The notes under the pieces were generated by a model. That model saw only the letters and a program-made list of their open reading frames with translations, was not told the DNA's origin and did no database searches. A DNA stretch of 63,986 nt, counting the filler, from Octopus bimaculoides (taxonomy: Eukaryota): assembly GCF_001194135.2 (NCBI RefSeq). It is 10 parts of 10 records of this genome, joined end to end, with 100 filler letters (N's around TTAATTAATTAA, not from the genome) between each part and the next. Parts side by side here need not be neighbours in the genome. Positions count along the whole stretch, not along the records: positions 48,212 to 53,260 come from NC_068984.1; positions 53,361 to 54,606 come from NW_026381282.1; positions 54,707 to 58,821 come from NW_026333619.1; positions 58,922 to 61,184 come from NW_026318301.1; 6 more parts are not named here. One strand, 5' to 3'. Both the position numbers and the translations under genes were made by a program. The first letter of the stretch is position 1; every line of letters begins with the position of its first letter. Of this stretch, positions 4,444-62,047 are shown one piece after another.

Positions 4444-5450
4444 ATGGAACTCTACCCGTTGGATTTTTCTATAAAAAATACACGTATCCCGCCGCAGAAG
4501 CAATATCTCAAGAACCTAATTGAGAAAACGAAAAATTTTATTCGAAGAGTGAGATGGTGAGCTTATTTCTTTGACATGAAAGAAAATCAGGATAACGGAA
4601 ACAAGTATGCCTTAAATCTTCTTTAAAAAACTCACCACCTATTTTAGAAGTAGAAGATTTTGAAAAAGACCTTTTCGAACTTATTAGAAGGATAAAATTC
4701 CGTAAAATCAGCAATTCGCACAAGAGAACTATGAATGAAAATATTATAAGTATAATGAATTCGGATAAGATTTTCGTAAACTCTGATAAAATCAAAAACC
4801 TATATGCGGTTGAAAATGATCTTTACAAACGACTTCTTTCTAATAACATTACAGACACCTACAAAATTGCAAATACTAACTTATATAAAGAGGTGAATAT
4901 CGAAGCAGGAATGATCGCTACTAATTTTCGTCTCTTTAATTAACCAGTACCACACGAAAATCATTAGAAGTAACCACAGAGCCGGAAATAACCAGAAGAT
5001 TTATAATTGTAAAGAACAAAATTGCTGTCCATTAGGAGGAAGTTGTCTAGAGAAAGGAATGGTGTATAGAACTAAGAGGCAAATAGATGGCTCAGGAGGA
5101 TGCAAAACATGCAAGAGCCTCGGAATATTCCTTCACAACTAGATTACATTTCCATGAGATTCATTTCGATACCCTGAAAATAGAACAGCAACGAGTCTCA
5201 CTAAACATGTCTGGTAATTGAAAGAAAATGATACCCGTCCTTTCCACATCAGCTGGACAATCTTGGAGAAAACAGCACCATATAAACGTGGGGCATATAG
5301 AGGCCAATTGGGGTGCAATTTGTGCCTGACTGAAAAGTTTTTCATTCTGGTCCAGGATAAATACGCACTAAACCAAAGACGGAAGCTTTTAAATTCCTGC
5401 AGACACGCCACGAACTATAAAATATCGTGTAAAAAGATACTGTATGGGTA
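4444..5450 (+). pseudogene. Penelope-like element ORF remnant: N-terminal domain joined directly to GIY-YIG endonuclease, RT absent
   Basis: Frameshifted translation: MELYPLDFSIKNTRIPPQKQYLKNLIEKTKNFIRRVRW*AYFF ... SDKIKNLYAVENDLYKRLLSNNITDTYK, then YNCKEQNCCPLGGSCLEKGMVY ... TSLTKHVW*LKEN ... CNLCLTEKFFIL ... LNQRRKLLNSCRH. No RT motifs lie between the two halves. Confidence 0.85.
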
Positions 5451-9065: not shown

Positions 9066-10497
9066 GTAAGTTATGAGGAAATAAGCAAATTATCTTCCAA
9101 ACTGCAACGCCAAATTTAAGGGTCGCTCAGGAAAACAATGAAAAATGGAACAAGAGTAAAAAAGAAACCCCTACTAGTAATATTTTGTTGACATCCCGTT
9201 ACTATCAATGAAATTTGATACCACAGAACTGAATTCATTTCTTGCAAAAGGATGGAGTAATATTGTTCTGTTCGTTTCTCAATAGTTCCCAGAATTCACT
9301 TCGTTATTTCTCTTTCATGTTCCATCTCCAATAAACTTTTAGACGTTTATAGGGTTGAGATCGGGACTTTGAGGTGGGAAATCCATAAGATCAACTCCTT
9401 CATCACTCACGAAATTTTTGATTCTCTTCGTAGTGTGACAGTGAGCGTTATACTGAACGAAGATAAGAAGTTGAACTGACGAGGATCGGAGTTGAGAATG
9501 GGTATGCTGTCTAAGAATCTGCTTGTAGATTTCGGTATTTGCAATCCCTTGTAGGCGAATAAGTGGATCAGGACCAACAGCAGAGATTACTCCCCGTAGC
9601 ATTACACTGCATTCTCCATAATTCCCTGTCTCCTTCACATATGCATAAGATAACCTTTCGCCAATTTTTCTCCAGACTTACATGCCGCCATCAGAACAAT
9701 CACATTAAACTTCGATTTATCGCTAAAAGGAAACTGCGACCACTGTTCTGTTATCCAAACGACATGTTCATGATCGAAGAGGAAGGCGGGTTCTTTGCTT
9801 CTTCTCGGAGATCAGAGGTTTCTTTGCTGGGGCCAGAGCAAGTAACACAGAACCCCGTAATCTCCGAGAAACTGTTTTGCGCGATACGTTGACATCGGAA
9901 ATCTCCGCAGCACTCTTAAACCTATCCTTCAGTGACATTCTAACCATAATACAACCCGGTTTTGGTGAAAGTCTTATGAGATCTACCGGTTTTGGGATTT
10001 AGCATCTGTCGATCCTGATGACTTAAAGCGAGCTACAATTCGTTGCACAACACTTCTAGACATCCCTACAGTAGTTACTATCACATAATTTGACTTGCCC
10101 TCTTGGTGAAGGTACATAATCCTTTGTTTTTCATCACAGGTCACCGGTTGTCTCTCACAAACCGCCATGTTGATAGTTGAAAGTTCCTATAATGTAAGAT
10201 CATAAGAAGTAACTGTTAGCCCATTAACAGTCTTCTAAACAGCAGATACCTCAGATAGTAGTTCGTTTTTTTCTAAGTGACCCTTAACTTTTGTCCGCTG
10301 CAATTTGGAGGATTGTTTATTTATTTCCTCATAACTTACGAAATATTTATTCATTTTACTTGAAAATTTCTCAAAAGATAGATATTAGATCTATTTAAAT
10401 ATGCGTAAAATATCTAGTTTCAATATGTTGTTAATATTCTATAATAACTATTTCAATTCATTTCGTCTTACTGACCCCTATATTATGGCTGCTACTG
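9066..10497 (-). mobile_element. Tc1-family DNA transposon with long TIRs (outer left TIR in gap)
   Basis: 9066-9142 is an inverted repeat of 10262-10339. The right end reads ...gctactg followed by TA (revcomp TA-CAGTAGC, a Tc1-type terminus). Transposase remnant inside. Confidence 0.9.
9178..10168 (-). pseudogene. Tc1-like transposase, disrupted by stops and frameshifts
   Basis: HTH-like N-terminus MAVCERQPVTCDEKQRIMYLHQEGKS..., catalytic region QYNAHCH...FPPQSPDLNPI (compare QDNAPCH...WPPQSPDLNPIE), C-terminal NGMSTKY. Confidence 0.9.
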
Positions 10498-15048: not shown

Positions 15049-15080
15049 ATTAGAAGGAAATCTCTTGAAACTGAAATATA

Positions 15081-15166
<86 letters not shown>
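15081..15166. repeat. (ACT)n(AAT)n microsatellite
   Basis: Directly visible. It abuts the 5' end of the R4/Dong fragment. Confidence 0.95.
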
Positions 15167-15167
<1 letters not shown>

Positions 15168-16289
15168 GATCAGCTACTCATCAATAAGATGATCTTAAAA
15201 GATTGTCACAAGCGACACAAAAACTTGTCAATAACCTGGATAGACTATAAAAAGGCCTTTCATAGCCTACCACATAGCTGGATTAGGAATTGTCTGGAAA
15301 TGTATGAAATAGCTCCTACTCTGCGAAACTTTTTATCTGTAAGTATGAGATCATGGAGAACCACACTGACATTGAACAATGACAATGAATTTCTAAATGC
15401 TGGAGATGTAAGAATTTCATGTGGCATTTTCCAGGGTGACTCNNNNNNNNNNNNNNNNNNNNNNNNNNNNNNNNNNNNNNNNNNNNNNNNNNNNNNNNNN
15501 NNNNNNNNNNNNNNNNNNNNNNNNNNNNNNNNNNNNNNNNNNNNNNNNNNNNNNNNNNNNNNNNNNNNNNNNNNNNNNNNNNNNNNNNNNNNNNNNNNNN
15601 NNNNNNNNNNNNNNNNNNNNNNNNNNNNNNNNNNNNNNNNNNNNNNNNNNNNNNNNNNNNNNNNNNNNNNNNNNNNNNNNNNNNNNNNNNNNNNNNNNNN
15701 NNNNNNNNNNNNNNAACTCAAAGGCCTACTAGCGATTGTTAAACAATTCAGTGATGACATCAGGATGCAATTTGGCCTTGATAAATGTGCAAAAGCTACC
15801 TTTATCAAAGGAAAAATGACAAAAACATCTAATGTGAACCTTGACCAGCAAAATGTCATAAAAGAGTGAGAACCAGCCGAGAGTTACAAATACCTAGGGG
15901 TAATTGAAGGGAACAATATCAAGCATTTAGTGATGAGGTAAATGATCAGAAGAGAATGTTATCGTAGGGTGAGAGCAATACTGAAGACAGAGCTGAACGC
16001 AAGAAACAGGATCGAAGCGATCAATGCTCTAGCCATACCACTCGTGACTTACAGTTTCAATATCGTTAACTGGTCAATTACTGAAATATGTAATGTTGAC
16101 AGAAAAATACGAAAACTGTTGACAATGCATAGAATGCACAACACTAGGTCAGATATAGAACGTCTTTATCTGCTAGGAAAATAGGGAGGTCGTGGACTTT
16201 TACAGCTGGCATTAACAATGAAGGTAGCCACAATTGACCTAGACACCTATCTGAAAAACTCTGAGGACTGGATGCTAAAACCTGTCCCA
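15165..16289 (+). pseudogene. R4/Dong-like non-LTR retrotransposon reverse transcriptase fragment (5'-truncated, gapped)
   Basis: KDQLLINKMIL, WIDYKKAFHSLPHSWI, GIFQGDS, FSDDIRMQFGLDKCA, YKYLG, TELNARNRIEAINALAIP, SDIERLYL. Premature stops near 15869 and 16184. Confidence 0.9.
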
Positions 16290-18167: not shown

Positions 18168-19878
18168 AGCTCAAATTTTCTGTTGGAGGTATTTCTAACT
18201 AAAAATAGTGCGTCGTCCCCATCGAATTCAGGGAATTCTTCTTTGAGTAAGTGTAAATTCCAACTAAGTCGGTAGAGATATACAAAAAAAAAGACATTAC
18301 ACAACTTCTTCAAAAACCAAGAACTAGCCATTACCATTGAAAAAGATTACAACTAAGTGAAATTCCTAGACGTTAATTTTAACCCTAATATTTCATGTTA
18401 TCAAACTTGCCATAAACCTAGCAATACTATCACGTACATACATGCACAAAGTAACCATCCTCATAATATTATTTAAAAAAATCTACCCTCTAACATAGAA
18501 AGTAGAATTAACTTATTATCCAATGAGGAAAATTTTAACAAACACAAGGACTACTATAATCTAGCACTTAAGAAGGCAGGAGACAAATATCGAATTAAGT
18601 ACAACGAAAACAATAGCAGCTATTCTAATTATTCCAATAAATAACCATATTAATGAACCCATATCAACTGGTATATTAGAAAACACCGACACACGATTAA
18701 TTAAGTTTTCTCAATAATAATCATCAGCAATACATTAGCAATAGACAAATCCTACAACAACAATAAACATAATATCAGACGCTATATGAGCAGGATAACC
18801 ATAACCTCGCTAATAGGACGAATAACAGTAATTTTACCAACCCACAAATCACTGTTAATAATGTAATTAAACCCAAGTAGACGAACAATAAATATCGAAA
18901 TCAAATAACTAAAGATAGAAATAAGAACATGAAACCTACACACTTGAAAAATGAAACTTATCCCACTACATATCATCCTTCTAATAATTCACATAATCGC
19001 ATAAATCATATTAATAAAGTTACGAATAATATAGAAACAAAGTAATCTATACCATATGTAAGAATAGATGACCCACAAAATATTAAACCACTACGATAAT
19101 AGACGCAGCAATAACATCATTTGGATCATAATTCTTTTTGCAAAACATCTAAAATCTAATTCTATTAAATGCATTAGAAACAACATTAAAAAAAAATTTA
19201 ACTCTAAATATGCAAAAATATTTAATAACAAAATGATCAGATTTGGATTTTCAGTATCTCTAAACCTATATAGGATCATCACTTCATTTCACAATAGGAA
19301 ACTAGACCAATTCTATAAAAAAAACAAAAAACTTTGTAATATACATACTAACCTCGATAATTCCATATCTAATAACAATTATCAGAATAACCAAACGTCA
19401 ATTACCCCTAATACATATAGACATAACAATAGAGTACCAACTAATAATTCTAATTGTAATTGTAGAAACCCGAATACTTGTGAAGTAGAAGGTAACTGTA
19501 AAATGAAAGATGTAGTATACAAAGCAACAGTTATTACCCATAATCTCTCTAAATTGACTTACATCGGATGTACACAAAATGCTTTCAAATTAAGATTAGA
19601 TAATCATAGATTATCCTTTAATGACCCTAGAAAAATAAATAGCACAGGTCTATCCAAAAAGGTTTGGCAACGGAAAAGAAGCAATACAGATTACTCGATT
19701 TCTTGCAAAATACTTTCTTCAGTTCCATCTTATAGACATAATAATATGATATTCAAATTATGCGTAGAAGAGAGTTTATATAACAATGAAAATGAATAGT
19801 TTTCTCGTAAATTCGAGAGATGAAAAGGTTTCTTCTTGTAGACATTTGTCAAAGTTCCTTTTCATTAACCTTAAATAA
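18168..19878 (+). pseudogene. Penelope-like element (RT C-half plus GIY-YIG), 5'-truncated, with inverted 5' segment
   Basis: VKFLDVNFN, YIHAQSNHPHNII, CNCRNPNTCEVEGNCKMKDVVYKATV, YIGCTQNAFKLRLDNHRLSF, LCVEE, SSCRHLSKFL*. The segment 18168-18280 encodes the RT catalytic neighbourhood on the minus strand. Confidence 0.9.
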
Positions 19879-23202: not shown

Positions 23203-23695
23203 AGGCGCAAAAGTTGCTGTGTAGTTAAGAAGCTTGCTTTGTAATCATAAGATTTCGGGTTCAGTCCCACTGCGAGGCACCTTGAGCAATTGAATTTTAC
23301 TATATTCTTGGACTGACTAACGCCTTATGAAGAAAACTAGAGAAAAACAGTTTGGAAGCCTATCGTGTATATACATGAGTTGTGCAAGTGTGTGTAAGTG
23401 TGTGTGTGTACGTAGGTGTGTGTACGTATCCGTGCGTGTTTGTGTGTGTGTGTGTGTGTGTGTATGTGTGTGTGTGTGTGCTTGAGTGTGCCTGAGTGTG
23501 CGGATATATGTGTTTATGTGTTTTCTGTTTGTGTTTGTCCTTTTCCTTAGCCCGATCACTTAACGATTCGGCGAACAGGACTGTTAGCATAATTACCCGA
23601 GTTTGAAAATTATAAATACCATTTCGAATAAACCTTTTAAAAGCGGTGCTTCAGCCTGGCTTCAGTCCAATGACTAAAGAAATAAAAATAAAAGA
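23203..23695 (+). mobile_element. SINE family A (tRNA head, CORE-like block, internal microsatellite, tail), full length
   Basis: B-box GGTTCAGTCCC, gcaccttgagcaa (CORE-like), a central (GT)n tract, and tail gcggtgcttcagcctggcttcagtccaatgact. Confidence 0.85.
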
Positions 23696-32000: not shown

Positions 32001-32165
32001 ATGACCTTCTTTTAGTTTCCGTCTGCCAACCAAATCCACTCATAAAGCTTTGGTCGGCCTGGGGCTATAGTAGATGACACTTGCTCAAGGTGTCGCGCAG
32101 TGGAGCTGTACCCTGAACCATGTGGCTGGGGAGCAATCTTCTCACCACCCAGTCATGCCTGCGCC
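32001..32165 (-). mobile_element. Head of SINE family A
   Basis: Reverse complement reads ggcgcaggcatgactgggtggtgagaag...ggttcagggtacagctccactgcgcgacaccttgagcaagtgtc...gtggatttggttggcagacggaaac. Confidence 0.85.
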
Positions 32166-36980: not shown

Positions 36981-37845
36981 TTCTTTTATTCTTTTATTTG
37001 TTTCAGTCATTTGACTGCGGCCATGCTGAAGCACCTCCTTTTGTCGAACAAATGGACCCCAGGATTTATTCTTTGTTAGCCTAGTACTTATTCTATCGGT
37101 CTGTTTTACCGAACTGCTAATTTACGAGAACGTATACACACCAACATCAGTTGTCAAGCGATGGAGTGGGGAAAAACACAGACACACAAATAGATACATA
37201 CGTATATATAATATTATTGTTCTTTCTTATGAAATATATAGAACTGCTCAAGAAGTGCTCGGGTCGAATCCGAGACAAAAGATAAGAATTAAGATGTAGA
37301 CTNNNNNNNNNNNNNNNNNNNNNNNNNNNNNNNNNNNNNNNNNNNNNNNNNNNNNNNNNNNNNNNNNNNNNNNNNNNNNNNNNNNNNNNNNNNNNNNNNN
37401 NNNNNNNNNNNNNNNNNNNNNNNNNNNNNNNNNNNNNNNNNNNNNNNNNNNNNNNNNNNNNNNNNNNNNNNNNNNNNNNNNNNNNNNNNNNNNNNNNNNN
37501 NNNNNNNNNNNNNNNNNNNNNNNNNNNNNNNNNNNNNNNNNNNNNNNNNNNNNNNNNNNNNNNATATAGCTCGAAACGTCAAAGACTTTCCGTATTCCCG
37601 AGCGTCATACTAATATATACTTTTGTTATTTACACCACCTGTCCTCGTCTGTTGTTATTATTTGTATATTCTCCCATATATATATATATATATATATACA
37701 CCCCGGGTTTCTTTAAGTATTCGTCTACCAAATCCACTCACGAGGCTTTGATCAGCCTGAGACTATAGAAGAAGACATCTGCTCAAAATGCCATGCAGTA
37801 GCACTGAACCCGTAACCATGTGGTTGGGAAGCAAGTTTCTTACCA
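36981..37845 (-). mobile_element. SINE family A split by a gap and a hammerhead-bearing insertion in its central microsatellite
   Basis: Tail at 36981-37195 and head at 37700-37845 share one orientation. The insert is at 37569-37678. Confidence 0.7.
37569..37678 (+). mobile_element. Short PLE-pLTR-like element; 3' half of hammerhead (GCTC GAA ACGT C AAAG), 5' half lost at gap
   Basis: About 110 bp identical, except for one base, to the reverse complement of 49891-49999. Ends ttctccca followed by (TA)n. Confidence 0.85.
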
Positions 37846-38010
37846 AGATTTTGATAATTGCTGTCACCAGAAATGTAACACAAACTATTTCAAAGTTTTC
37901 AAAGTTAGAGCTGGCTCCTTAAAAATATTACTGGCGAACGGCAATATTTTATGAACCTAAATGCCTTTTATGAAATCCAAATGATAGCATGATATTGATG
38001 ATAGGAAAGA

Positions 38011-38499: not shown

Positions 38500-39806
38500 T
38501 TTAAAAGGATTGACGTAACTCTTCACGAAGGTAAATAATCAAGACGAAGAACGCAATTCGATTGTATAGATATTTTATTAGTTGAACAATATTTCAACAG
38601 TACGTCTGTCTTTGTCAAGTTCAAAATAAGAGGTGATTAAAAATTCAAAATTACAGAAATTTAAACGTAAAGTATGAACGAGAGCAACCAGCATCCATAC
38701 GTTGATGGAATGAGATCATCAGTTTTATAACAGGCAGAAAGAAAGAAAAAAATAGAAAAAGGAAGACGACAGAAAAAAAAGGAAAGAAAAAGAGAGAAAG
38801 AAGAATATTCAATCAAACAGTCTTGTATAAATTTGATGATATTCTCCTGTCATATTATTCATTCCTCCAGGGCGTGATGTTAATAACCCGAAAACATATT
38901 TCTCCTCATACATTCTGAGAAGTGAAAGTGGGGTAGATTCAGAATATTTCAAGTCTTCTTCAAAATTGCAGCCGCTTGAAACGAAATGTTCAGCAAGTTC
39001 TGTTGAACTACTGTTCTTGTGCCTGAAGTCGAATCTGAGCCCATTAAACCTTTTGTTTAATTGTTCTGTTGTATAACCAACATAAATCAAGTTGTGTTTC
39101 GTGCATTCTGCAACGTACACTAAATGAGAATCTTTACATGTTCCACCTTCTGTATAAATCATAACATTTCTGTTATGATTTTTGATGGAATTCACTTCAC
39201 TCATGCTGTTGCACAATGAACAGCGCTTACCTCTCTTGCGGCTGTTCTTTAAGGTACAGCGTGCAGATACTCCAATGTTCGTTTTCTTGGAGTCAGATAT
39301 AGAGGTCAATAATTCTCTTATGTTCTTATTCCGTCGAAAGGCTACAATGGGCGGCTGAGCAAATATCTGTTTGAAACTGGGATATCTTTTCGGCACATGC
39401 TGGTAACTTTCATGCAACACTTCTGAAATGCCAGCGAAACGTCGGTGCCAGCTAATCACTAAAGGAATTCTATCATCTATTGTATTTTGTTTGCTAAAAT
39501 TATGCGTGTAGGTTTGACTATCTTTGCTAATCTTAGCTATTTCATTTGCTATTTCCTTTAAACGTGATTCACTGTAACCTCGTTTGACATAATGACATAC
39601 AAAAGCATTTGCATGTTTCCAGTAATCCCCTATGTCAGTACAAATCCATTTTATCCTCAAAAATTGGGATTTCGGATTTGACCGAATAAGATGATGTGGA
39701 TGATCTGAGTGGCGGTGGAGATAAATGTGGGATGACGTGGGCTTGCAAAATGACTGTCACTATTCTGCCTCCAGAAAACTTGACTTTTGCGTCTAAAAAT
39801 TCAACG
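38500..39806 (-). pseudogene. Penelope-like element, Neptune-like (end of RT, thumb, Zn-finger linker, GIY-YIG), 5'-truncated
   Basis: GVEFLDAKVKFSGGRIVT, then the 283 aa ORF 38809-39660 with IPLVISWH, PPIVAFRRNKNIRELL, RCSLC, GGTCKDSHLVYVAECTKHNLIYVGYT, ELAEHF and PGGMN. A hammerhead lies in the 3' UTR. Clade assignment is inference. Confidence 0.9.
38582..38624 (-). ncRNA. Minimal type I hammerhead ribozyme motif with U3-A8 variant
   Basis: Minus strand: UUGAAC UUGACAA A GACAG acgua CUGUU GAA AUAU U GUUCAA. It has a 6 bp stem I, a 5 bp stem II and a palindromic AUAU stem III. Confidence 0.75.
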
Positions 39807-41085: not shown

Positions 41086-41466
41086 AGTAGTTTTATTTTT
41101 ATAACGTGCTTTCACTTCACTACCGAGCGCAGCTCTGTGCGCCTTGGGTATGTGCTGTGGTTTGCTGTGGTGCTCTTATGTTTACTGTATTGAAAGTGTT
41201 TTGCGTAGAATGTGTGCAGTACCCAGTAGTGCAATTTTCTGTATGTTATATATATTTGTAAGTCCTGGTGTTTTTGTTATGTATTTGTCTGAATATTTTT
41301 TTATTATACCTAAGGCACCTACTATGATAGGAATTGTTTCTGTTTTTAGATTCCACATTCGAGTTATCTCTATTTCCAGGTCTTTGTATTTTGAAAGTTT
41401 TTCCATTTCTTTTAGAGAAACGTTGTCATCTGCTGGTATTGATACATCAATTAGAAAGCATTTTTT
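41086..41466 (-). mobile_element. 3' end of R4/Dong-like non-LTR element (restriction-like endonuclease C-terminus plus 3' UTR)
   Basis: KKCFLIDVSIPADDNVSLKEMEKLSKYKDLEIEITRMWNLKTETIPIIVGALG...IQKIALLGTAHILRKTLSIQ*. The 3' UTR runs into (AAT)n. Confidence 0.9.
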
Positions 41467-41504
41467 AAATTGTTATTGTTGTTGTTATTTTTATTATTAT
41501 CATG

Positions 41505-47442: not shown

Positions 47443-47605
47443 ATACGACAGGCTTCTTATAGTTTCCATTTACCAAATCTACTCACAACGCTTCGATCGC
47501 CCCGAGGCTAGAAGACATCTGCTCAGGGTGTCCTGAATTTGAGATTGAACCCAGAACCATATTGTTGGGAAGGGAGCTCCTTACGACACAGCCACACCGG
47601 CGGCT
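47443..47605 (-). mobile_element. Head of SINE family A
   Basis: Reverse complement ggtgtggctgtgtcgtaagg...ggttctgggttcaatc...gtagatttggtaaatggaaac...gcctgtcgtat. Confidence 0.8.
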
Positions 47606-48862: not shown

Positions 48863-49890
48863 CACTTTCTATTTCCTTTAAAACTTTCTTACTTCCATAT
48901 TGTCTTTTTTATTGTTCATTAGATTTATACTACACTCGTATTTCATCAAAAGCATTCTATATTTTGTGAATTCACCTAGAACAACTCTGACACATATTTC
49001 CTTTTTTAAAGATTTTAGTTTGTGATATGTAAAAGGTCTGACAGCCATTGTTTGAACAAACAGTGCTTGGGTAATCTCACTGTTAATCTTGGATAAGTTG
49101 TCGTTGTTGCTATTGTATTTAACCTTAGATCACTTCTCTTGGAGCGGACTTACGTTCAAAGTTATTCCATCTATGATCAACTCATCTTATTCCTATACGA
49201 GGCGAAAATATAGCCATGTTATCCAGCGTATATTTTTTTGAGATGGAGGATGTGTGATCAGCGTTTGATTGGGCTGAGATTTAGCAGGTCGAACGACCAT
49301 ATGGAATCTATATGGTGAGCATCTGGATAATTTTCACAGATTAATTTCTTGGCGAACTGCAGACACCAGAGGATATGATCGATCGATTTTTCTCTCTAAA
49401 TATCTGCTTCTCCATCAATAGGCTCTTCTGTCTGGATATCTTTAATTTTTATTTATTTATTTATTTCAGTCATTGGACTCCGGCTGTACAGTAGCATCGC
49501 ATTGAAAGGGTTAGTCGAGCAAATCGACTGCCATATATGCTTTCTTTTTTTTATAGTCTATTTGTTTCTTTTGTCAAACCGGAAAGTGACGGTGATGTTT
49601 CGTAAGTAAACCTACACTGGTTCTTTAGCGGTCGAATGGGGACAAACACACAGACATACATGCGCACACATACNNNNNNNNNNNNNNNNNNNNNNNNNNN
49701 NNNNNNNNNNNNNNNNNNNNNNNNNNNNNNNNNNNNNNNNNNNNNNNNNNNNNNNNNNNNNNNNNNNNNNNNNNNNNNNNNNNNNNNNNNNNNNNNNNNN
49801 NNNNNNNNNNNNNNNNNNNNNNNNNNNNNNNNNNNNNNNNNNNNNNNNNNNNNNNNNNNNNNNNNNNNNNNNNTATATATATATATATAT

Positions 49891-50075
49891 ATGGGAGAAT
49901 ATACAAAAAATAACAACAGACGAGGACAGGTGGTGTAAATAACAAAAGTATATATTAGTATGACGCTCGGGAATACGGAAAGTCTTTGACGTTTCGAGCT
50001 ACGCTCTTCAACAGAAAGAATACGGAGACAAGGAGAAAAACACGGAGAAAAAAAATTGAATAGTGTTCAGTCAAC
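49891..50075 (-). mobile_element. Short PLE-pLTR-like element carrying a hammerhead
   Basis: Homologous to 37569, 53361, 58200 and 60825. The 3' end ttctccca abuts (TA)n. Confidence 0.85.
49984..50018 (-). ncRNA. Minimal type I hammerhead motif (U6 variant)
   Basis: CUUU CUGUUGA A GAGC gua GCUC GAA ACGU C AAAG, with a GUC cleavage triplet. Confidence 0.75.
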
Positions 50076-50536
50076 ACGACGAGCACCTACATAGTTTCCC
50101 TTACATAAATTCACTCACATGGCACTAGACAGCCCAAGGCTATGGAAAAAGATACATACACAAGCAGCGGGTCTGAACCCAAAACCAACGCGAGTTTCTT
50201 AACCACACAGTTATTCTTGTATGTTGAAAACTTCCCATGCTGGGAATCGAATATGAGCCATCTGGGTGAAACCCAGGTGTCCAATATGTATATGTTTAAT
50301 ACAAATTAATAATATCTTTATTTATCGCTTCAACCCTACTACAAACCCCTTTCACGTTAAAACAGTCATTAAGTGCAAGTAGTTAATCTCATATTTACTC
50401 GTGTGAGCCTACAAGCTGTTTCAATGTATGAAATAGATTCTTAATTTTTTCCGTTTTAAGGTGTACTTGATTACCTTATGTCTTAGTGTCATAGATTTTC
50501 ATTTCAAAACAATATCAGTTTGAATATGGAATGAGT

Positions 50537-50569
<33 letters not shown>

Positions 50570-51118
50570 GTATAACGTATATAGTTTTATGTATGTATAT
50601 TTTATTATTTTATTATTATGGGTGCCCCTGAAGCTGATGTCTTTGTTGAAATGACCATCATCATCATAGTCATAAATTATCATCACTCGTCGTCGTCATC
50701 ATCATCATCATCACCATCGTTGTCGTCACAATCGCCGTCGTGTTCGCTTCCATTAGTGTTGTTGTTGCTGTTATTACTGCATACGTTGGTGATGATGCTG
50801 TTGAAAGGCAAAATTCCAGAAGAGATATCGATTTACATTGAAAATCCATAGAAACGTCTACAGAAGTGGCCAATGGCAATGAAAGAAAAGTTCAAATGGT
50901 AAAAAATCTAATCGAGGTATTTCTAAGAGAATTCCATAAAACCAGGAAAGGGAAAGAAACAGGGTGGAGGAGGGAAAAGAATGAGAAGGTGGGAGGAAGG
51001 GAAGTATTAAAATGAAAAAGATAGCAAGCCAGATGGAAGAATAACGAGATAATAGGTGCGAAAATTAGATAGATAAAGAAACGAAGAAAGGTGTTAGAAA
51101 AGAAGTGTATATACATAC

Positions 51119-51156
<38 letters not shown>

Positions 51157-52552
51157 GCGAGCACACACACACACATATACGTATCTGTGAAACCTTTCTA
51201 CCAAGCCCTAAAATTAATATTCATTAGCTCCCTAATTCCACAACCGTTTCTGCCAAATTCATAAGCTTCTCTGTTTTTCATTGGCCACCTCGAACTCCCT
51301 ACTGTTACCTCAGTCTTCCGGAACACTCTCCCGATTTCCCCTCAACCCACACCTTAACCATAATTCCTATCCCCTATTTCCATTTTATTCGCCTCACCTC
51401 CTTCTGCAGTCATATCCTTGACAGATTTTAATATGATAGAAGGTTAGCGATGAGCTTCAACAGTTTGAATAATTAACTGTAATGTAATTAAAAGAAGTTG
51501 ATACTAAATTAACAACGAGTATGTGCTCACGTGTGTGTAGTTTTTTTCTACGTATTTGTAAAATGAGAGTAAGGATGTGTCGTTCTATCTTAAAACACTG
51601 TGGAACTTAATTTCATCGAACTTAGACTGGATTAATTAGTGCGTAGGACATAGGTTGAGATAGATATTTTAAACTTGCTACTTTGGCAACTATGTTACGA
51701 CTAGGTGTTGTAGAAAAAGCAGAAAAGTATGAGAAGAAGAAACAGTGCCATATAGGATATCTATCAATTTTCCAATAGGGAGTATATGCTTCAAGACATA
51801 CATTCTATTAAATTCTATGTAGCTATCCGTAATACTGTGCGTTTTAAAAGGAAACTCAGTTTTAAAAGGAAACGGTTTATTAATTAATCAATATATTTAT
51901 TTACTTATAACTGCAAATTCTGATATTTAATGCACAGGTCGACAATGGAGAAAAAAAATGAGAAAGGAAAAACGCGAGGCAATACAGTTGGAACTAAAGG
52001 TACAAGAAGTTAAAACTGTTAATATTGCGAAAAAGGAATATATGATAGTAAAAGCAAAATGTTTCAATATGTAGAGTAAAAAAGAATAATCGGATGCTAT
52101 TTGGAAAGAAGTGAATTTAAATCGATATTTTGTAATAAAAAAAAATTTAATCAAAAACAAAAAAAAGCGTTGAAAATTCTGCATGGAGTGATATTTTTAA
52201 TGGATTAGACGGAATGTAGATTCATATAATGTGTTACTCTAAATATACGTTAGTGAGAGATGGTAAAGAAATATATTTAAAAAGTGTGTGCTTCCTATGA
52301 AATGAAGTTCATTAGTAAATTAATTAACACGATGCCTTATCTCTTTATGTAATTTTGAGAAATACTAAAACTTCGGATTGCAATTCATTGGATAATGTCC
52401 ATACTCTCATGTATATGAACTTTATACATAACTTTCAAGTGGAAATATATTATTTTAATATCAGATAGAATGCTCCGACCCTCCGACGTTTTGACTTCTC
52501 TCTGGGTCTCCTTTATCTTTCATTATTTTGGAGTCGATGAAATTGTAAACCA

Positions 52553-52660
52553 GGAAGGCGAATTAGCGCAGCTGTAAGAAAGTTTGACCAGATGCCTTTC
52601 GGTATTAGATCTGGCTCTTTGCGTTCAGAGTTCAAATCCAACTATAGTCTACTTGGCTGT
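52553..52660 (+). mobile_element. SINE family C head, old
   Basis: aaggcgaattagcgcag...gcgttcagagttcaaatcc. Confidence 0.6.
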
Positions 52661-52852
52661 TAGACTTAACCAGTCACCCAGTTTAACATGATCCCCTCTC
52701 CTTCGCCACTACCACCTAATATCTTGGGTGCTTTTAAGGAAATTCACTTCTGGAAGCATTCGATTCAGATCTCGAGTTTGGGAACACTTTGCTCTATCCC
52801 ATCAGTCTCGGAAGCCCTGTTTTAGAACATGGGCAATATTTTCCATTCTGAT

Positions 52853-52902
<50 letters not shown>

Positions 52903-53360
52903 ACACGCACACACGAGAGTATTTTCGCAGAAAAATGTCTTCCCACGTTTGAGTTTAAACGCATGCATGTATCATATTCAGCTTCCTGCGACACACACAC
53001 ACACTTCCTGCGAGTGTGTGTGTGTATTTACGAATAAACAAACATAAATGAGAAATAGGAATATGGCTCTTAGTCATCGAAAGCAATATCAAACGTAAAA
53101 TGTAGCCGAAGAGAAGTAGTAAGAATTGGAATGGTGGGGAAAAATACGGGCAGACACAAATATCAATGACCCTGAGTGTGTAAAAGCGAATACATCCTTA
53201 CACAGACCTATACATACACACATACATACATACATATATATATATACATATATATATATANNNNNNNNNNNNNNNNNNNNNNNNNNNNNNNNNNNNNNNN
53301 NNNNTTAATTAATTAANNNNNNNNNNNNNNNNNNNNNNNNNNNNNNNNNNNNNNNNNNNN

Positions 53361-53560
53361 ATATAGGGAGAATTCACTAAAAAAAAAAGACAAAGACAGG
53401 TAGTGTAGACGACAAACAGATGTATAACTTTAACGCTCGGGAAGTGAAAAAGTTTTAACGTTTCGAGCCTACGCTCTTCCACAGAAAGGAACACAGAAAG
53501 AAACAGTGAGAGAAAATAAAGAGACGGGGAGAGAAAATAAAGAATGTGTGGTGGCTGGCG
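53361..53560 (-). mobile_element. Short PLE-pLTR-like element; hammerhead at 53453-53488
   Basis: CUUU CUGUGGA A GAGC guag GCUC GAA ACGU U AAAA. The 3' end ttctcccTATAT lies at a gap whose other flank is (TA)n. Confidence 0.8.
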
Positions 53561-54706
53561 ATCTATCAGTTGCCGTTTTCTTTACAGTTGTTTGAAATCT
53601 ACTCTCCTGATAATAATGAGAGCAAACTCGGAGTACCGTCAGAAGAAATATAGCGTTACCGCTAATACTAAGCGACCATTGACGCTTAGCACTACTTGAT
53701 ATGGTTAGCCGTAAGCTGGAATATATCTGAGAGCTACCAGTAAACTTCAAACGTAATACACCTGTGAAAACAGCTGAGAAATTTGGGTATTTACCTTTAT
53801 TAGACGGGGTAAAATATGTTGCCAGCAGGCATCTACGTCAATCGAACAACGTATCCCAGTACCCTGCATCTAAATAAGGGGTACAGAGTTTGATTCCTCT
53901 AGCCATCAGCATTTTTCTCTCCTATAAGGCTGTAATATGTATATATATATATATAAATATACACACACATACACACATATATATATATGTGTGTGTGTGT
54001 GAGTGTTTGTGTATCTCTCTATGTATATATACGTTTGTCTTCTTGAAGCACACCTGCTTATTCCAGTTTTCCAAAGCTGTATGCGATGTAATATTTGTAT
54101 GCATAAGAGTTGATCTCTCCGGGAAAAATTTTTTTCACACATCAAAACAGGAGAACGACAAACGTGTTTGGTATTATTTATTTACCATTACACCTGTTCC
54201 ATTTTATAATAGGAGTTACAAAATTGTACTTGTAGTAGAATCCTTTTAGATATATCCCGTTTTGTTCGAGTGGTCATATCTGCAGTGGCCATTTTGACCT
54301 CATTTGTTCATCTCCGAGCGGCAATGTAAACAACGTTGATTTAGCAAAAACCTGAAGATTAGCTAAACTGAAATTGTGTTTGTTACAGCTAACATTACAA
54401 GCTTCATTTTGCTATCAATCGATTGTAATCCGTACTTTACTTGCTCCGTACTTTACCTGCTCCGTTCCTTACTGTTTTGGATTTGGATTCGCCTTCTTAG
54501 CAGGTTTAGTGGTTAACCCCCTTGAAGCTTTCTAACTTCCTACACTTGGATCTCTAGATCATACTAACTGATTACTATACATATGTATATATATATATGT
54601 ATATATNNNNNNNNNNNNNNNNNNNNNNNNNNNNNNNNNNNNNNNNNNNNTTAATTAATTAANNNNNNNNNNNNNNNNNNNNNNNNNNNNNNNNNNNNNN
54701 NNNNNN

Positions 54707-54725
<19 letters not shown>

Positions 54726-54737
<12 letters not shown>

Positions 54738-55027
54738 GAAAATGAAAATAATACTGACATCTGTTTTAACAGATATATTTACCAAAATTGCATCAAAATA
54801 TCTTGAAATAATAGAGAGTAAATTTACTCAATAAAATCGCCATTGGCTTCAACCATGACACCCAGACGACTTTGAAATCTCCTGCAACTCTTCTCGACGG
54901 TCTCCTTGTTTAAGTTGGTGAATGCTGCCATAATCCTTGCCTTCAGTTCATCTTTGGTGTTACAAGGGATTTTGTAGGTCTCTCGCTCAACTGCGCCCCA
55001 CACGTAATAATCAAGTGGGGTTACATA
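54726..55027 (-). mobile_element. maT/DD37D-type transposase 3' end
   Basis: PLDYYVWGAVERETYKIPCNTKDELKARIMAAFTNLNKETVEKSCRRFQSRLGVMVEANGDFIE*. Confidence 0.85.
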
Positions 55028-55310
55028 CCCCCACACATATATCAACATGAATATATACTTATAGATATATACATACATATATTCAACCATAGATAGAAAT
55101 TCATATACACACATCTGTATATGCAACGGTTATATTCCATATCGTAAATGAACGAGGTAAGTTGAACCTCTTACCTAGTCTTATAAACATAACAAATAAA
55201 GAACGCACAGAACAAAAGTGGGATTTCCCTCCTCGGCTGCCTACCGGACATGTACGTAGTTTTGTCACTCAAAGGCATGACCGCAGCCTATATATTTGAC
55301 CATACATATA

Positions 55311-55600
55311 CAGTAATCCCTCACCATATCACTGTTCACTTATCGCGGTTCAGCTATCGCGATTCACCTATCGCGATTCACCTATCACGATTCACCTATC
55401 GCGGTTTATCATTTTAGCCTACGTCGTTTCCTCCGTGGTGTTGTCTTGCATTTATAATAAAATAAATATATACAAATTATAGAAATAATAATAATAATAA
55501 TAAAATTTACAGTACAATACTGTTTCTACTTCGCGGATTTGTACCTATCGCGGAGGGGGTTGTTTGGAGCGTAACACTCGCGATGGTCGAGGGATTACTG
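55311..55600. mobile_element. pogo/Tigger-like MITE (290 bp) with internal 14 bp tandem array
   Basis: Perfect 12 bp TIR CAGTAATCCCTC / GAGGGATTACTG, TA on both sides (55309-10, 55601-02), and five copies of TTCACCTATCGCGR at 55335-55404. Confidence 0.9.
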
Positions 55601-55682
55601 TACATATTAAAGATGATATGCACTGTCGGGTGCTGTTACTGATAATTCCTGGCAGTTTTAGAATTGGTGGTAGTGGTGGTGG

Positions 55683-55720
<38 letters not shown>

Positions 55721-56221
55721 GTGATGATGAGGATGATGATAATGGTGGTAATGACAATGATTGTAATTGTAATTTTGATGATGGCAAGATTATGACTTCA
55801 TATTAAAATGTTTCGTACGATCGACTTTACACAGCCGAATTCATACGTAAATCAAGACAATGTTTAGAATATCTAAAAGAGTGGAAGGATCTTAATTCGT
55901 CATGGGGTCGTTGGCATCAACACCATTTCTTTTTTCAAGCATCAGGCAAGGCAATGGTTCTACTTGGAAGTTCTGCAGAAAATTTGGCATATGGCAACAA
56001 GTCAAGCTGAACAAAAATCAGATTTTTGTGTTCAAGATCAGAATGGGAGCAGCAAGTAATGTAAAGTTTCTCTGCGAAACAGGTGCTGCAAATGTTTGTT
56101 CCATTTTAAAACACGATTATTGTGTCTATACTTCCTGACGTGAATTTCCTATTCATTCACCCATCCTTTAATTGCTTAACGTTTTTGGAGAGTGTCGTAG
56201 CCTTCTTCCCATGTTGTGTGA

Positions 56222-56527
56222 TGAAGGATGGCTTAGTAGCCAGGGTATTCGGCTCAGAATCGTAAAGCCATAAGTTCGATTCCCCGTTGACGATTTGTGT
56301 CCTTGAGCAAGACACTTTATTTCACGCTGCTCCTGTTCACTTAGTACCTGTATTTCAAAGGGCCAGCCTTTCTACATTTTGTGTGCCACGCTGAAACCCG
56401 CTGAGAACTACGTTAAAGTTACGTATGTCTGTGGAGTGCTCAGCCACTTGCACGTTAATTTCTCGAACGGGCTGTTCCGTTAATCCAGTCAACTGGAACC
56501 TTTGTCGTCGTAACTGACAGAGCGCCA
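56222..56527 (+). mobile_element. SINE family B, full length, diverged
   Basis: B box AGTTCGATTCC, CORE-like gtgtccttgagcaagacact, and the family B tail. Confidence 0.85.
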
Positions 56528-56898
56528 ATGGAAAAGTGCATGGCGAAACGAGTTGATGGATTGGCGGAGTCGGTTACTGGAAGTGCTCTTTGTCAGACTG
56601 AAGGGGGTGTGATAAGTAAATAATCCACGAACGAACGAACGAACCAGCCAACTGTGGTCAAACCTTTTTCGAAATAGCTTTAACATACCTTATGTAATGA
56701 GCAAATATTTTCTTTTATTAATCGATAGGTGAAGATTTCGAAATCGCAATCATTTAAAGTTAGAATTACGCATGCGCTGAAGGGGAGGAATCATTCGTAG
56801 TCTTGCATGAAAGCAACTGTTTCACCGCCTTCATCTCTTCCTCCCGTCACCTTTCTCTCAGCAAATTGCCAGTGCATTATGGGATTCGCCACCACCAC

Positions 56899-56961
<63 letters not shown>

Positions 56962-58199
56962 TTGAGTTGGTGTTTCATGTAATCGATGTACTGAGTAAGG
57001 GAAAGAGAGGGAGGTAGAGTGAAAAACACAAAAAGAAGCAGAGAGAGAGAAAAGGAGAGAGAGAGAGAGAAAGTGAGAGAGAAAGAAAGATGGAGAGAGA
57101 AAGAGAGAGAGAAACATAGAGAGAGAGAGAAAGAGAGTTTTTTTATGTAGCTTATATTGCAATAAAACTATTGGAACGTCCCGAGGCAATTTGGTGTTAC
57201 TAGGTTTAGTCTGGCCACTTAAGATCTCCATAAAAACACGCACAGCATAAGACACACACACACACANNNNNNNNNNNNNNNNNNNNNNNNNNNNNNNNNN
57301 NNNNNNNNNNNNNNNNNNNNNNNNNNNNNNNNNNNNNNNNNNNNNNNNNNNNNNNNNNNNNNNNNNNNNNNNNNNNNNNNNNNNNNNNNNNNNNNNNNNN
57401 NNNNNNNNNNNNNNNNNNNNNNNNNNNNNNNNNNNNNNNNNNNNNNNNNNNNNNNNNNNNNNNNNNNNNNNNNNNNNNNNNNNNNNNNNNNNNNNNNNNN
57501 NNNNNNNNNNNNNNNNNNNNNNNNNNNNNNNNNNNNNNNNNNNNNNNNNNNNNNNNNNNNNNNNNNNNNNNNNNNNNNNNNNNNNNNNNNNNNNNNNNNN
57601 NNNNNNNNNNNNNNNNNNNNNNNNNNNNNNNNNNNNNNNNNNNNNNNNNNNNNNNNNNNNNNNNNNNNNNNNNNNNNNNNNNNNNNNNNNNNNNNNNNNN
57701 NNNNNNNNNNNNNNNNNNNNNNNNNNNNNNNNNNNNNNNNNNNNNNNNNNNNNNNNNNNNNNNNNNNNNNNNNNNNNNNNNNNNNNNNNNNNNNNNNNNN
57801 NNNNNNNNNNNNNNNNNNNNNNNNNNNNNNNNNNNNNNNNNNNNNNNNNNNNNNNNNNNNNNNNNNNNNNNNNNNNNNNNNNNNNNNNNNNNNNNNNNNN
57901 NNNNNNNNNNNNNNNNNNNNNNNNNNNNNNNNNNNNNNNNNNNNNNNNNNNNNNNNNNNNNNNNNNNNNNNNNNNNNNNNNNNNNNNNNNNNNNNNNNNN
58001 NNNNNNNNNNNNNNNNNNNNNNNNNNNNNNNNNNNNNNNNNNNNNNNNNNNNNNNNNNNNNNNNNNNNNNNNNNNNNNNNNNNNNNNNNNNNNNNNNNNN
58101 NNNNNNNNNNNNNNNNNNNNNNNNNNNNNNNNNNNNNNNNNNNNNNNNNNNNNNNNNNNNNNNNNNTATATATATATACAGATATAGATACACACACAA

Positions 58200-58345
58200 A
58201 AACACACAAATATTTCTTTCTTCCCTTTCTGCGTAAGAGCGTAGGCTCGAAACGTCAAAGACTTTTCCATTTTGCTCAAGCGTCAAACTAGTACACCAGC
58301 TTGTTTTTCCCTCATCTGTTACTGTATTTTGCCTTCTGCACATTT
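58200..58345 (+). mobile_element. Short PLE-pLTR-like element; hammerhead at 58225-58260 with decayed core
   Basis: CUUU CUGCGUA A GAGC guag GCUC GAA ACGU C AAAG. Confidence 0.75.
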
Positions 58346-58469
58346 GAACTACACACACACACATACACACACACACACACATAGATACATACACACGAAG
58401 GCGGCGAGTTAGTAGAGTCGGTTTCATCTCCGAAAAGACATATGGCGGTCCACGGGAACCATGTCTAAC

Positions 58470-58625
58470 AAAGTGAACCGATTGAACCAGTGGAAACATA
58501 ACTTTCATCTATCACCCATGCTTCTGCATCGGGACCAAATAGTCATCTGAGAGGTCATTGATGGAAGGTCAGAAGTGCCATTGACAACGAGGAGGCTCAG
58601 AGAAACGGCAATCATCTGTGAAGAT
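58470..58625 (-). mobile_element. Possible CR1/L2-type LINE fragment
   Basis: Higher-GC insert reading (T)DDCRFSEPP..., reminiscent of the STLDDSG..PP region upstream of CR1 RT. Short and frameshifted. Confidence 0.35.
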
Positions 58626-58764
58626 GGAGCAATCACCTTGAATGTATGTATGTATGTAGGTGTGTGCGTACGTACGTATGTACGTATATATGTATGTATG
58701 TACGTACATATGAGTCGATGTATGATGTATGTGTGTTTGTATGTATGGCAACATGCATGTATAC

Positions 58765-58821
<57 letters not shown>

Positions 58822-59279
58822 NNNNNNNNNNNNNNNNNNNNNNNNNNNNNNNNNNNNNNNNNNNNTTAATTAATTAANNNNNNNNNNNNNNNNNNNNNNN
58901 NNNNNNNNNNNNNNNNNNNNNTAAATTGATAATCCTTTACCCTTTTAATTTGTGTATATATATATATATATGAATTTGCTTTCGAATATAATACATTTCC
59001 AAATTTGCTTAGTTCGAATAAATTCTTTCTTCAAGGCTTGGAGGTAGAATTTTATGTACATACATGCAGCATAAATAAATAAATAAATATTTGTGACATG
59101 CATACATTTATATATTTGAATATGCAGCGATAAATATCGTTACACGACATGTGTCTATTTGCAAACGAATATGATATACATACATACATACATACATACT
59201 AAAACACATGCATGCACTCACACAAGCGCACACACATACGCATGCGTGTGCGTGTGGTTTTGTTGTATTTCTAATGTAG

Positions 59280-59404
59280 TCATATAATTATTCTCTCCTT
59301 GATTATGATCATTGTAGTTATGATCATAATCATCGTCATCAGCGTCATCGTCATCATCATCGTCAGTACCATCATCATTATAACCACCAGCCCCTCCGCC
59401 GCCG
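59280..59404. repeat. (ATC/GTC/ACC/GCC)n trinucleotide tract running into a gap
   Basis: Directly visible. Confidence 0.85.
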
Positions 59405-60255
59405 NNNNNNNNNNNNNNNNNNNNNNNNNNNNNNNNNNNNNNNNNNNNNNNNNNNNNNNNNNNNNNNNNNNNNNNNNNNNNNNNNNNNNNNNNNNNNNNN
59501 NNNNNNNNNNNNNNNNNNNNNNNNNNNNNNNNNNNNNNNNNNNNNNNNNNNNNNNNNNNNNNNNNNNNNNNNNNNNNNNNNNNNNNNNNNNNNNNNNNNN
59601 NNNNNNNNNNNNNNNNNNNNNNNNNNNNNNNNNNNNNNNNNNNNNNNNNNNNNNNNNNNNNNNNNNNNNNNNNNNNNNNNNNNNNNNNNNNNNNNNNNNN
59701 NNNNNNNNNNNNNNNNNNNNNNNNNNNNNNNNNNNNNNNNNNNNNNNNNNNNNNNNNNNNNNNNNNNNNNNNNNNNNNNNNNNNNNNNNNNNNNNNNNNN
59801 NNNNNNNNNNNNNNNNNNNNNNNNNNNNNNNNNNNNNNNNNNNNNNNNNNNNNNNNNNNNNNNNNNNNNNNNNNNNNNNNNNNNNNNNNNNNNNNNNNNN
59901 NNNNNNNNNNNNNNNNNNNNNNNNNNNNNNNNNNNNNNNNNNNNNNNNNNNNNNNNNNNNNNNNNNNNNNNNNNNNNNNNNNNNNNNNNNNNNNNNNNNN
60001 NNNNNNNNNNNNNNNNNNNNNNNNNNNNNNNNNNNNNNNNNNNNNNNNNNNNNNNNNNNNNNNNNNNNNNNNNNNNNNNNNNNNNNNNNNNNNNNNNNNN
60101 NNNNNNNNNNNNNNNNNNNNNNNNNNNNNNNNNNNNNNNNNNNNNNNNNNNNNNNNNNNNNNNNNNNNNNNNNNNNNNNNNNNNNNNNNNNNNNNNNNNN
60201 NNNNNNNNNNNNNNNNNNNNNNNNNNNNNNNNNNNNNNNNNNNNNNNNNNNNNNN

Positions 60256-60289
<34 letters not shown>

Positions 60290-60824
60290 AAAATGATATA
60301 TGAGCATACGCATGTATACATAGGTGACAGTGGATTTTCATTGATGAGTTCATGAACCTTGGTTCTTTTCACTAATATATATATACATATATATAAAGGC
60401 TAACAAAAAACTATGTTTCCAATAGAACGATTCAAGTGATTAAATTGATGGAAATGTGTGTTTCTCATAAAATACTTTGCAACATAAATGCAGATCTACT
60501 TCATATACAACTATTAGCATTTATACAATATACAAGCTTATAAGTACTTACTATACAAAGTTTGAAATATATTTACTTTAAACTGTTTACAATACAGCAA
60601 CGTTTACAATATAATTTTTTTCTCTTTTTTGTGATAAGTCTGTTTTAAACGTTATTATTTAGAATTGAAAGCTGTAGACAGGGAAGTGGGTTTAAAATCG
60701 CTTTGCAACCATGTGACTGCGAACTTGGTTCCACTGTCTCACATCTTGGCCAGGGCTGTTGTGCTATAGACTCGGATAGGGTTATGTATGAAATTTGGTA
60801 AGCAGAACTGTATAAAAAACTAAA

Positions 60825-60990
60825 GACAGGTGTAGGAACAACAAGCAGGTGGATTGATTTAACACTCGCGAAAAATGGAAAAATGTTTTACGTTTCGAGC
60901 CTACGCTCTTCGACGGGAAGGATTAAGAGGGAAAGAAAATGCTGAGAGAGAATGAAGAAAACGGAGAGAGAAATAAAAGTGCAGAATTCA
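60825..60990 (-). mobile_element. Older PLE-pLTR-like element; hammerhead remnant at 60885-60920
   Basis: CUUC CCGUCGA A GAGC guag GCUC GAA ACGU A AAAC. Confidence 0.7.
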
Positions 60991-61011
60991 ACGGTCCAAC
61001 ATTTGCATGCG

Positions 61012-61184
61012 TTGCTGTGTGGTAAGAAGCTTGCTTTCCGACAACATGGTTCTGGGTGTTCAGTCCTATTATGCAGCACCTTGGCCAGGTATCTTGTATT
61101 ATAGCCCCGGGCCAAACATTTTCTGTTTGTCTGTGTGTCTAATGCCTGTACGTATGTTTGTCTGTTTGTGTGTGTGTGTATATA
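61012..61184 (+). mobile_element. SINE family A head plus microsatellite
   Basis: gttgctgtgtggtaagaagcttgc...ggttctgggtgttcagtcc...gcaccttggccaggtatc. Confidence 0.8.
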
Positions 61185-61284
61185 NNNNNNNNNNNNNNNN
61201 NNNNNNNNNNNNNNNNNNNNNNNNNNNNTTAATTAATTAANNNNNNNNNNNNNNNNNNNNNNNNNNNNNNNNNNNNNNNNNNNN

Positions 61285-61600
61285 AAGTGCTGCCACACCC
61301 GCCGTACTCTTCTGATTTGACACCAACGGATTTCTACCTCTTTCGATCTCTTTCAAATGCTATGCGCAGTTTCGTTCAATACTGATGCAGAATTGAGAGC
61401 TTGGTTGGATCAATTTTTCGAGTCGAAATCGGGTGATTTCTACCAACGAGGTATTGAAAATCTTGTTGAACGTTGGGAAGAAGTTGTAAACAACAAGGGT
61501 GAATACATTATTGATTAATTAGTTGTTAGTTTTTTTATTTATTAAAGCTTTAAAAAATTTAAATTAGAAAAAACGGCGGCAACTTAAGTTGCCAACCCAA
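61285..61600 (+). mobile_element. mariner (DD34D) 3' end with right TIR
   Basis: VLPHPPYSSDLTPTDFYLFRSL...FYQRGIENLVERWEEVVNNKGEYIID* (one frameshift). The TIR ends aacttaagttgccaacccaa followed by TA. Confidence 0.9.
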
Positions 61601-61602
61601 TA

Positions 61603-61915
61603 CAATATCATCGGGCCGACCAAAGGCTTGTGAGTGGATTTGGTAGACGGAAACTGAAAAAAGCCCGTCGTATATATATATGTATATCTATGTGTGTATC
61701 TTTTAGTCTGTATCTGTCCCCCATCACCGTTTGACAACCGGTGTTGGTGTGTTTACGTCCCTGTAGCTTAGCGGTTCTGCAAAGCAGACTGAAAGAATAA
61801 GTATCAGGCTTAAAAAAAGTACTGGGTCGATTTGTTCGGCTAAAAATTGAAGGCGGCGCCCCAGCATGGCCGCAGTCTAATGATTGAAACAAAATATAAA
61901 AAATAACAATAAAAA
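61603..61915 (+). mobile_element. SINE family A body and tail, 5' part interrupted by the mariner
   Basis: cgggccgaccaaaggcttgtgagtggatttggtagacggaaactg...gcatggccgcagtctaatgattgaaac. Confidence 0.9.
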
Positions 61916-61981
61916 TAATAATATATAAATTCATGTTTTGAGCTCTATTTACTGTTTGCACCACCAAATCAATCAATCTGT

Positions 61982-62047
<66 letters not shown>

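Follow-up and report, generated by a model that had tools for sequence, protein, structure and literature searches.

A high-copy Octopus repeat with the minimal hammerhead fold of Penelope-like elements and U at core position 6

The window analysed here, a 63,986-nucleotide stretch of Octopus bimaculoides DNA made of ten joined parts, is AT-rich animal DNA (35% GC, 6450 N) that holds five copies of a short repeat. The repeat carries a minimal hammerhead ribozyme fold of the kind found in Penelope-like elements (PLEs), with U in place of the canonical A at core position 6. The most intact copy, 49891 (49893..50075, minus strand), has its hammerhead at 50018-49984, with a CUUU/AAAG stem I, a CUGUUGA core (U6 at 50011), an extra A at 9.1, a GAGC/GCUC stem II with a 3-nt loop, an ACGU palindrome and C at H17 (49988). 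This copy ends 95 nt beyond H17, where it passes into (TA)n and then an N gap, and a repeat resembling a short interspersed element (SINE) lies on its 5ʹ side. Copy 53361 (53366..53569, minus strand) has its hammerhead at 53488-53453 with the core CUGUGGA (U6 at 53481, N7 at 53480) and U at H17 (53457); it ends 91 nt beyond H17, at TATAT followed by an N gap. Copy 58200 (58206..58352, plus strand) is decayed and 5ʹ-truncated. Its hammerhead (58225-58260) has C6 (58232) and U8 with stems I and II intact, its 3ʹ end lies at (CA)n, 95 nt beyond H17 (58256), and its 5ʹ side is a TA/CA repeat. Copy 60825 (60801..60984, minus strand) is also decayed, with the core CCGUCGA (C4 at 60915, U6 at 60913), A at H17 (60889), a broken stem I and a 3ʹ end that adjoins no microsatellite. 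Copy 37569 (37567..37675, plus strand) is a 3ʹ half that begins at the TA of loop II beside an N gap, lacks the 5ʹ core, and has its 3ʹ end at (TA)n in the tail of a SINE-like repeat.

The four longer copies are 67-76% identical in pairwise comparison, and a profile built from them recovers precisely the five copies, and no sixth, across the whole window at E<=1. The stem II-GAAACGU motif has four matches in the window versus none in 500 dinucleotide shuffles, and its 11-base core has five matches versus four in 500 shuffles. No hammerhead appears among the 150 of 195 Rfam matches of the window that were listed (E<=5). Copies 37569 and 49891 are 99% identical across 116 nt and are therefore not independent samples of the family. 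The near-identical stretches (37567-37694, plus strand; 49874-50001, minus strand) are inverted, 12.2 kb apart and each beside an N gap; they are likely two insertions of a young subfamily, and a local duplication or an assembly effect is possible.

An earlier note on this DNA had given all five copies a single motif. They are indeed homologues at the five places it named, but the whole motif is present only in copy 49891: copy 53361 is one stem I base short (AAAA), and the other three depart from it by the C6 and U8, the C4 and broken stem I, and the missing 5ʹ core described above. Several of its more specific observations hold. Position 7 is U, G, G and C in the four complete copies, three of these four retain G8/A9, three have U at position 6, and stem III is a loop-less ACGU palindrome in all five copies. 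Its statement that stems I and II pair is correct for stem II (4/4), whereas stem I is complete in only two of the four. The base missing from the 3ʹ arm of stem I in copy 53361 is common in the sequence reads described below (at its site, ~54% of the DNA depth and 43-45% of the RNA reads have it), so that the family can be said to have the 3-5 bp stem I of a minimal hammerhead. All five copies have G12 A13 A14, A15.1-U16.1 and a non-G H17 (C, U or A), and all four complete copies have an unpaired base 9.1 and the G10.1-C11.1 pair. Core bases other than position 6 are intact in two of the four copies and in the read majority. Thus, the repeats depart from the canonical core C3 U4 G5 A6 N7 G8 A9 at position 6, where U is also the majority in all four sequencing runs that we mapped.

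Two further ideas about U6 were tried and rejected. The alternative core suggested in the earlier note, a UUGAAGA register with U at position 3 and A at position 6, failed on inspection: it fits only the subfamily with U7, breaks stem II and misplaces U16.1-H17. We also considered that U6 might lock the monomer by pairing with the palindrome. The U6 helix does form, but A6 versions of the same copy are predicted to misfold more strongly (-8.0 to -11.2 versus -7.2 to -8.7 kcal/mol for U6), and hence such locking is not specific to U6. Monomer folds of the copies are no better than those of shuffles (z -0.6 to -1.6).

Is U6 a property of the family or of the copies in this window? Four of the 24 runs listed for the same organism, two of DNA contigs and two of RNA reads, were mapped at >=80% likeness onto copy 53361, the most central copy by pairwise identity. 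From the DNA sets, 8033 and 8203 contigs mapped, and from the RNA sets, 2477 and 2293 reads. The highest summed depth, on the core, is 4.4 and 4.9 million, versus 48 and 55 in unique flank. The core-to-flank ratio is ~9x10^4 raw and ~3x10^3 once corrected for contig overlap by a factor of 31, summed contig depth being no copy number in itself, and the family has about thousands to ~10^5 copies. U is the majority at position 6 in the DNA contigs and in the RNA reads, and U6 is thus a family-level state and not local decay, in line with the family-wide variant proposed in the earlier note. No row among the 40 of 84 difference rows listed touches C3, U4, G5, U6, G8, A9, G12-A14 or the ACGU palindrome. 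Across the 31 listed rows tallied (53378-53507), the smallest top share is 19.5%, and the remaining 44 rows should therefore lie below ~20%. Because the row tallies leave no further A>C row, G6 and G17 are each below 5% in both DNA runs; because they leave no further A>G row in one of these (X4), C6 is below 5% there. Depth is flat across positions 6-7, which indicates that A6 reads are not clipped at the core. Hence, U6 is the majority state, with A6 below ~20% and G6 below 5% of DNA depth.

Variation within the hammerhead falls where a hammerhead tolerates it. At N7, U accounts for 43-44% of DNA depth and C for 15-16%; at H17, A accounts for 23-24% of DNA depth and for 42-44% of the RNA reads. 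Only three places vary in the 36-nt hammerhead (N7, H17 and the CpG base of loop II), versus 11 and 7 in the 36-nt flanks; the chance that both variable core places fall on N7 and H17 is 1 in 78, calculated post hoc. In these likeness-selected reads, a free N7 and H17 with G17 below 5% is the pattern expected of a constrained hammerhead, here one with U6.

The ends of the copies bear on how they were inserted. In four of the five, the 3ʹ end lies 91-95 nt beyond H17, and in four of the five it adjoins a microsatellite, versus a background of 3.3% per position. The earlier note had described the elements as mostly abutting (TA)n; this applies to three copies, two of whose (TA)n runs pass straight into N gaps, but not to the copy at (CA)n or to the one with no microsatellite. 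The 5ʹ ends vary among copies, and loose ends of reads show several 5ʹ continuations together with direct joins to (TA)n. A fixed 3ʹ end past the hammerhead, a variable 5ʹ end and microsatellite targets are together the anatomy of a PLE pseudo-long terminal repeat (pLTR). Solo pLTRs have been described (PMC3846280), and a microsatellite bias has been reported for Neptune, Naiad and Hydra PLEs (PMC8557442). The Anolis Poseidon element PAc (Frangieh et al. 2024, PMC11167929) resembles the family in a 3ʹ end ~90 nt past the cut, AT-rich targets and the absence of RNA-seq ends at the cut site. Its reverse transcription begins 111-118 nt into the open reading frame (ORF) and its cut site is at +26, which places the start 85-92 nt beyond the cut. 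The two differ in that an ATG lies at stem II of PAc, whose cleavage has been tested and is assisted by protein, whereas the sense strand of the family copies contains no ATG. The earlier note had read the repeats as a non-autonomous PLE-dependent element or a solo pLTR; the anatomy fits the 3ʹ pLTR ends of a PLE at (TA)n, but no PLE ORF adjoins any of the five copies.

An abundant SINE-like repeat recurs in the window (37699-37850, 50107-50187, 61020-61112, 23226-23330, 32007-32147, 47451-47584 and 61611-61667). Its tail is where two of the five hammerhead copies lie, and such tails presumably serve as a source of (TA)n targets.

The closest printed scaffold is the Neptune hammerhead of Acropora digitifera (Fig. 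S3 of Cervera and De la Peña 2014, PMC4209133), which has nearly the family's stem II and an identical GAAACGUC, but has A6 and a GCU/AGC stem I in place of CUUU/AAAG. The family shares with PLE pLTR hammerheads the extra base between 9 and 10.1, the G10.1-C11.1 pair, a 4-bp stem II ending in GCUC, a loop-less ACGU palindrome, a stem I of 3-5 bp and mostly single, dispersed copies. It differs from them in U6: A6 is present in 56/56 rows of Fig. S3/Table S1 (PMC4209133) and in 34/34 rows of File S2 of Craig et al. 2021 (PMC8557442), both of which come from searches that required A6. The octopus PLEs Hydra-1_Obim and Naiad_Obim (PMC8557442) share with the family a preference for (TA)n in an octopus genome, but the Hydra-1_Obim hammerhead has A6 and stems unrelated to the family's, and the GCUC-GAAACGU motif was not found in the portions of the Craig et al. 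supplement that we examined (PMC8557442).

Outside the window, a pattern scan of metagenomes gave 13 loci, six of which are AT-rich and animal-like and were kept; the other seven were dropped as chance matches by GC content and context. All six have the family's stem II and GAAACGU but depart from it in stem I; in four of their six primary motifs, A6 precedes an intact G8-A9. Pattern scans elsewhere gave none in viral contigs, none in phages, and 0 and 2 in prokaryote genomes, both judged to be chance. Among possible sources of the family we rank the Neptune clade first, with about an even chance. Two of the six animal-like loci contain head-to-head inverted pairs of A6-type motifs that match the printed Acropora Neptune motif (L009:2190-2270 and L005:2850-2910), a layout described for PLEs (PMC8557442).

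What are these repeats? They are a real and very abundant family with the minimal hammerhead fold of PLEs that lacks the canonical A6. On balance, we lean slightly towards the view that they are 3ʹ-terminal pLTR pieces, truncated on the 5ʹ side, of a PLE that targets (TA)n, and that the minimal type I hammerhead of its masters has U6 and is likely slow and helped by dimer formation or protein. The PLE protein would nick (TA)n, and reverse transcription would be primed ~90-95 nt downstream of the hammerhead and would usually end after 110-210 nt, such early stops leaving single copies that could not pair in cis. Because single copies have no partner for the palindromic stem III, any cleavage should take place in tandem master transcripts. 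There, the U6 hammerhead may fold as a dimer through the ACGU palindrome and cleave slowly, probably needing the PLE protein; the PAc hammerhead, too, cleaves only with its protein (PMC11167929). Cleavage is likely unnecessary for the insertions seen here, and catalytic mutants of PAc still insert in vitro (PMC11167929). We favour a slow, helped ribozyme over a dead one because variation avoids G17, G8 and G12.

Several observations weigh against this interpretation. A PLE ORF adjoins none of the five window copies and none of the six animal-like metagenome loci, and the PLE remnant within the window has another hammerhead, one with A6. Stem II is invariant and provides no covariation. Compensatory changes are confined to stem I and to the comparison of the window group with the metagenome loci; since these are two related groups, the changes amount to about one event, and the pattern used to choose the metagenome loci held stems II and III fixed. 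Selecting the mapped reads for their likeness to a copy with U6 tends to make sites look conserved. Moreover, 44 of the 84 difference rows lie beyond those listed, and each DNA run has one further A>T row, which could represent A6 (at 5-20%) or any of the reference's 93 A bases. RNA reads show no pile of ends at the cut site, to which such libraries are insensitive, and they come equally from both strands (940/958 and 781/981), as in passive read-through, although the libraries may be unstranded. Finally, U6 may simply be dead, because in a pairwise scan every single mutant of the CUGA turn was low in activity and the C3/G8 swap gave the only rescue (PMC9901934), and because A6C sharply lowers Mg2+-supported activity (PMC3088659, PMC7151607).

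The same PLE origin with a catalytically dead hammerhead would mean that a founder master lost A6 and spread since cleavage is dispensable, with the fold surviving as a signal for protein binding or positioning, or simply through recent common descent. We consider this somewhat unlikely. It agrees with the lack of rescue of CUGA-turn mutants by second mutations and with RNA reads that have no ends at the cut site. It also agrees with the behaviour of other PLEs: PAc does not depend on cleavage for insertion in vitro (PMC11167929), and Naiad PLEs multiply without canonical hammerheads (PMC8557442). However, binding alone would not be expected to produce subfamily variation that is concentrated on N7 and H17 and avoids G17, G8 and G12, which is the pattern of cleavage. 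Furthermore, a natural hammerhead with a changed position 6 and the remaining core kept, as in the family, does cleave: that of phage Bcep176 has C6 (Perreault 2011, PMC3088659; Naghdi 2020, PMC7151607), with a rate of <0.1 per minute (PMC3088659), or ~0.3 per minute in Mn2+ (PMC7151607), in which it works better than in Mg2+. It differs from the family in being a single phage sequence with C6, shown to cleave, rather than a high-copy animal sequence with U6. An activity figure for A6U was not found in the literature consulted, and the passages of PMC11014351 add nothing on position 6. A bolder proposal, also somewhat unlikely, is that in a genome-dominant PLE lineage U took the place of A6 while the ribozyme stayed functional in several subfamilies, the lost contact being made good by the PLE protein or by a metal ion such as Mn2+.

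A PLE parasite of retrozyme-like or SINE-like type, a non-autonomous family in its own right that springs from short masters, would account for the very high abundance with no ORF seen beside the copies, and for the depth of one subfamily, which drops to single-copy level at about 53570. Animal non-LTR retrozymes are likewise short, non-coding, PLE-related units with a type I hammerhead, and derive from PLE pLTRs (bioRxiv 10.64898/2026.07.22.740005). However, a retrozyme by definition consists of hammerhead-bearing units in tandem, whereas the family copies are single, variable at the 5ʹ end and located at microsatellites; a tandem array of the unit was not found in 49000-62000, the reads give only rare back-joints, and their loose ends show several 5ʹ continuations. 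Nor do the copies have the internal Pol III A and B boxes of a tRNA-derived SINE: the sense strand has no A box within one mismatch and no exact B box, and a B-box look-alike with one mismatch is part of stem II. We regard such a family as improbable. It is very improbable that active masters have canonical A6 and that U6 is a mere side branch sampled here, since, although the further A>T row could sit at position 6 and reads <80% alike escape mapping, U6 persists over at least three N7 states, depth is flat over positions 6-7 with no clipping of A6 reads, and the U6 copy 49891 is young, being within 1% of a second copy.

Minimal PLE hammerheads are already known and abundant; as far as literature listings show, the new part is the family-level U6 state. 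A family-level U6 hammerhead (CUGUUGA, A6U, octopus) was not found in those listings, and the alignments of Lünse et al. 2017, reportedly the largest survey of such hammerhead variants, may hold it. It was not found either in passages of two cephalopod repeat papers (PMC13282606, PMC8967140), which are silent on ribozymes. Because U6 breaks the CUGANGA pattern, searches that require it (PMC4209133, PMC8557442) would miss the family. What is the significance of such a family? The role of PLE hammerheads is stated to be unclear (PMC8557442), PAc, the one reconstituted system, inserts without needing cleavage (PMC11167929), and an abundant family with one core base changed and the other hammerhead rules kept is a natural experiment on the need for cleavage. 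Cleavage by the U6 family would mean that the accepted core is wider than CUGANGA or that a protein rescues it, whereas failure to cleave would mean that a very successful PLE can do without cleavage. Were U6 to work, it would define a natural class of U6 hammerheads, and “hammerhead-less” PLE clades might carry such variants.

The PLE ORF remnant of the window lies at 38812-39805 (minus strand). It matches GIY-YIG at E 6e-4, below Pfam's cut-off, and its relatives carry reverse transcriptase (RT); a named relative of the protein comes from Octopus bimaculoides. A Cys-rich linker, which we take to be Neptune-like from its motif, precedes the GIY-YIG domain. The remnant has its own minimal hammerhead at 38582-38624 (minus strand), with a U3-A8 core swap, a known hammerhead variant, and with A6. 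Its stem I has 6 bp, its stem II has 5 bp and its palindrome is AUAU. The 3ʹ end of the element lies at (ATT)n, 89 nt past this hammerhead, so that the remnant serves as a control for the 91-95 nt measured in the U6 family. We considered this remnant as the partner of the U6 family and rejected it, as its hammerhead is its own and different. Decayed PLE-like ORF remnants at about 4540-5450 and 19070-19800 (both plus strand) resemble Hydra clade proteins by eye; neither the U6-family motif nor a downstream hammerhead was found with them.

Remnants of other elements are also present. Non-LTR retrotransposon RT remnants lie at 15075-16184 (plus strand), with RVT_1 at E 3e-5 at 15162-15440, and at 41182-41472 (minus strand). 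Nine sites, for example 53261-53360 and 58822-58921, consist of paired 44-base N runs around a short fixed AT spacer; they resemble assembly gap markers rather than biological sequence. At 9339-9998 (minus strand), the reading frames resemble those of a Tc1/mariner transposase remnant.

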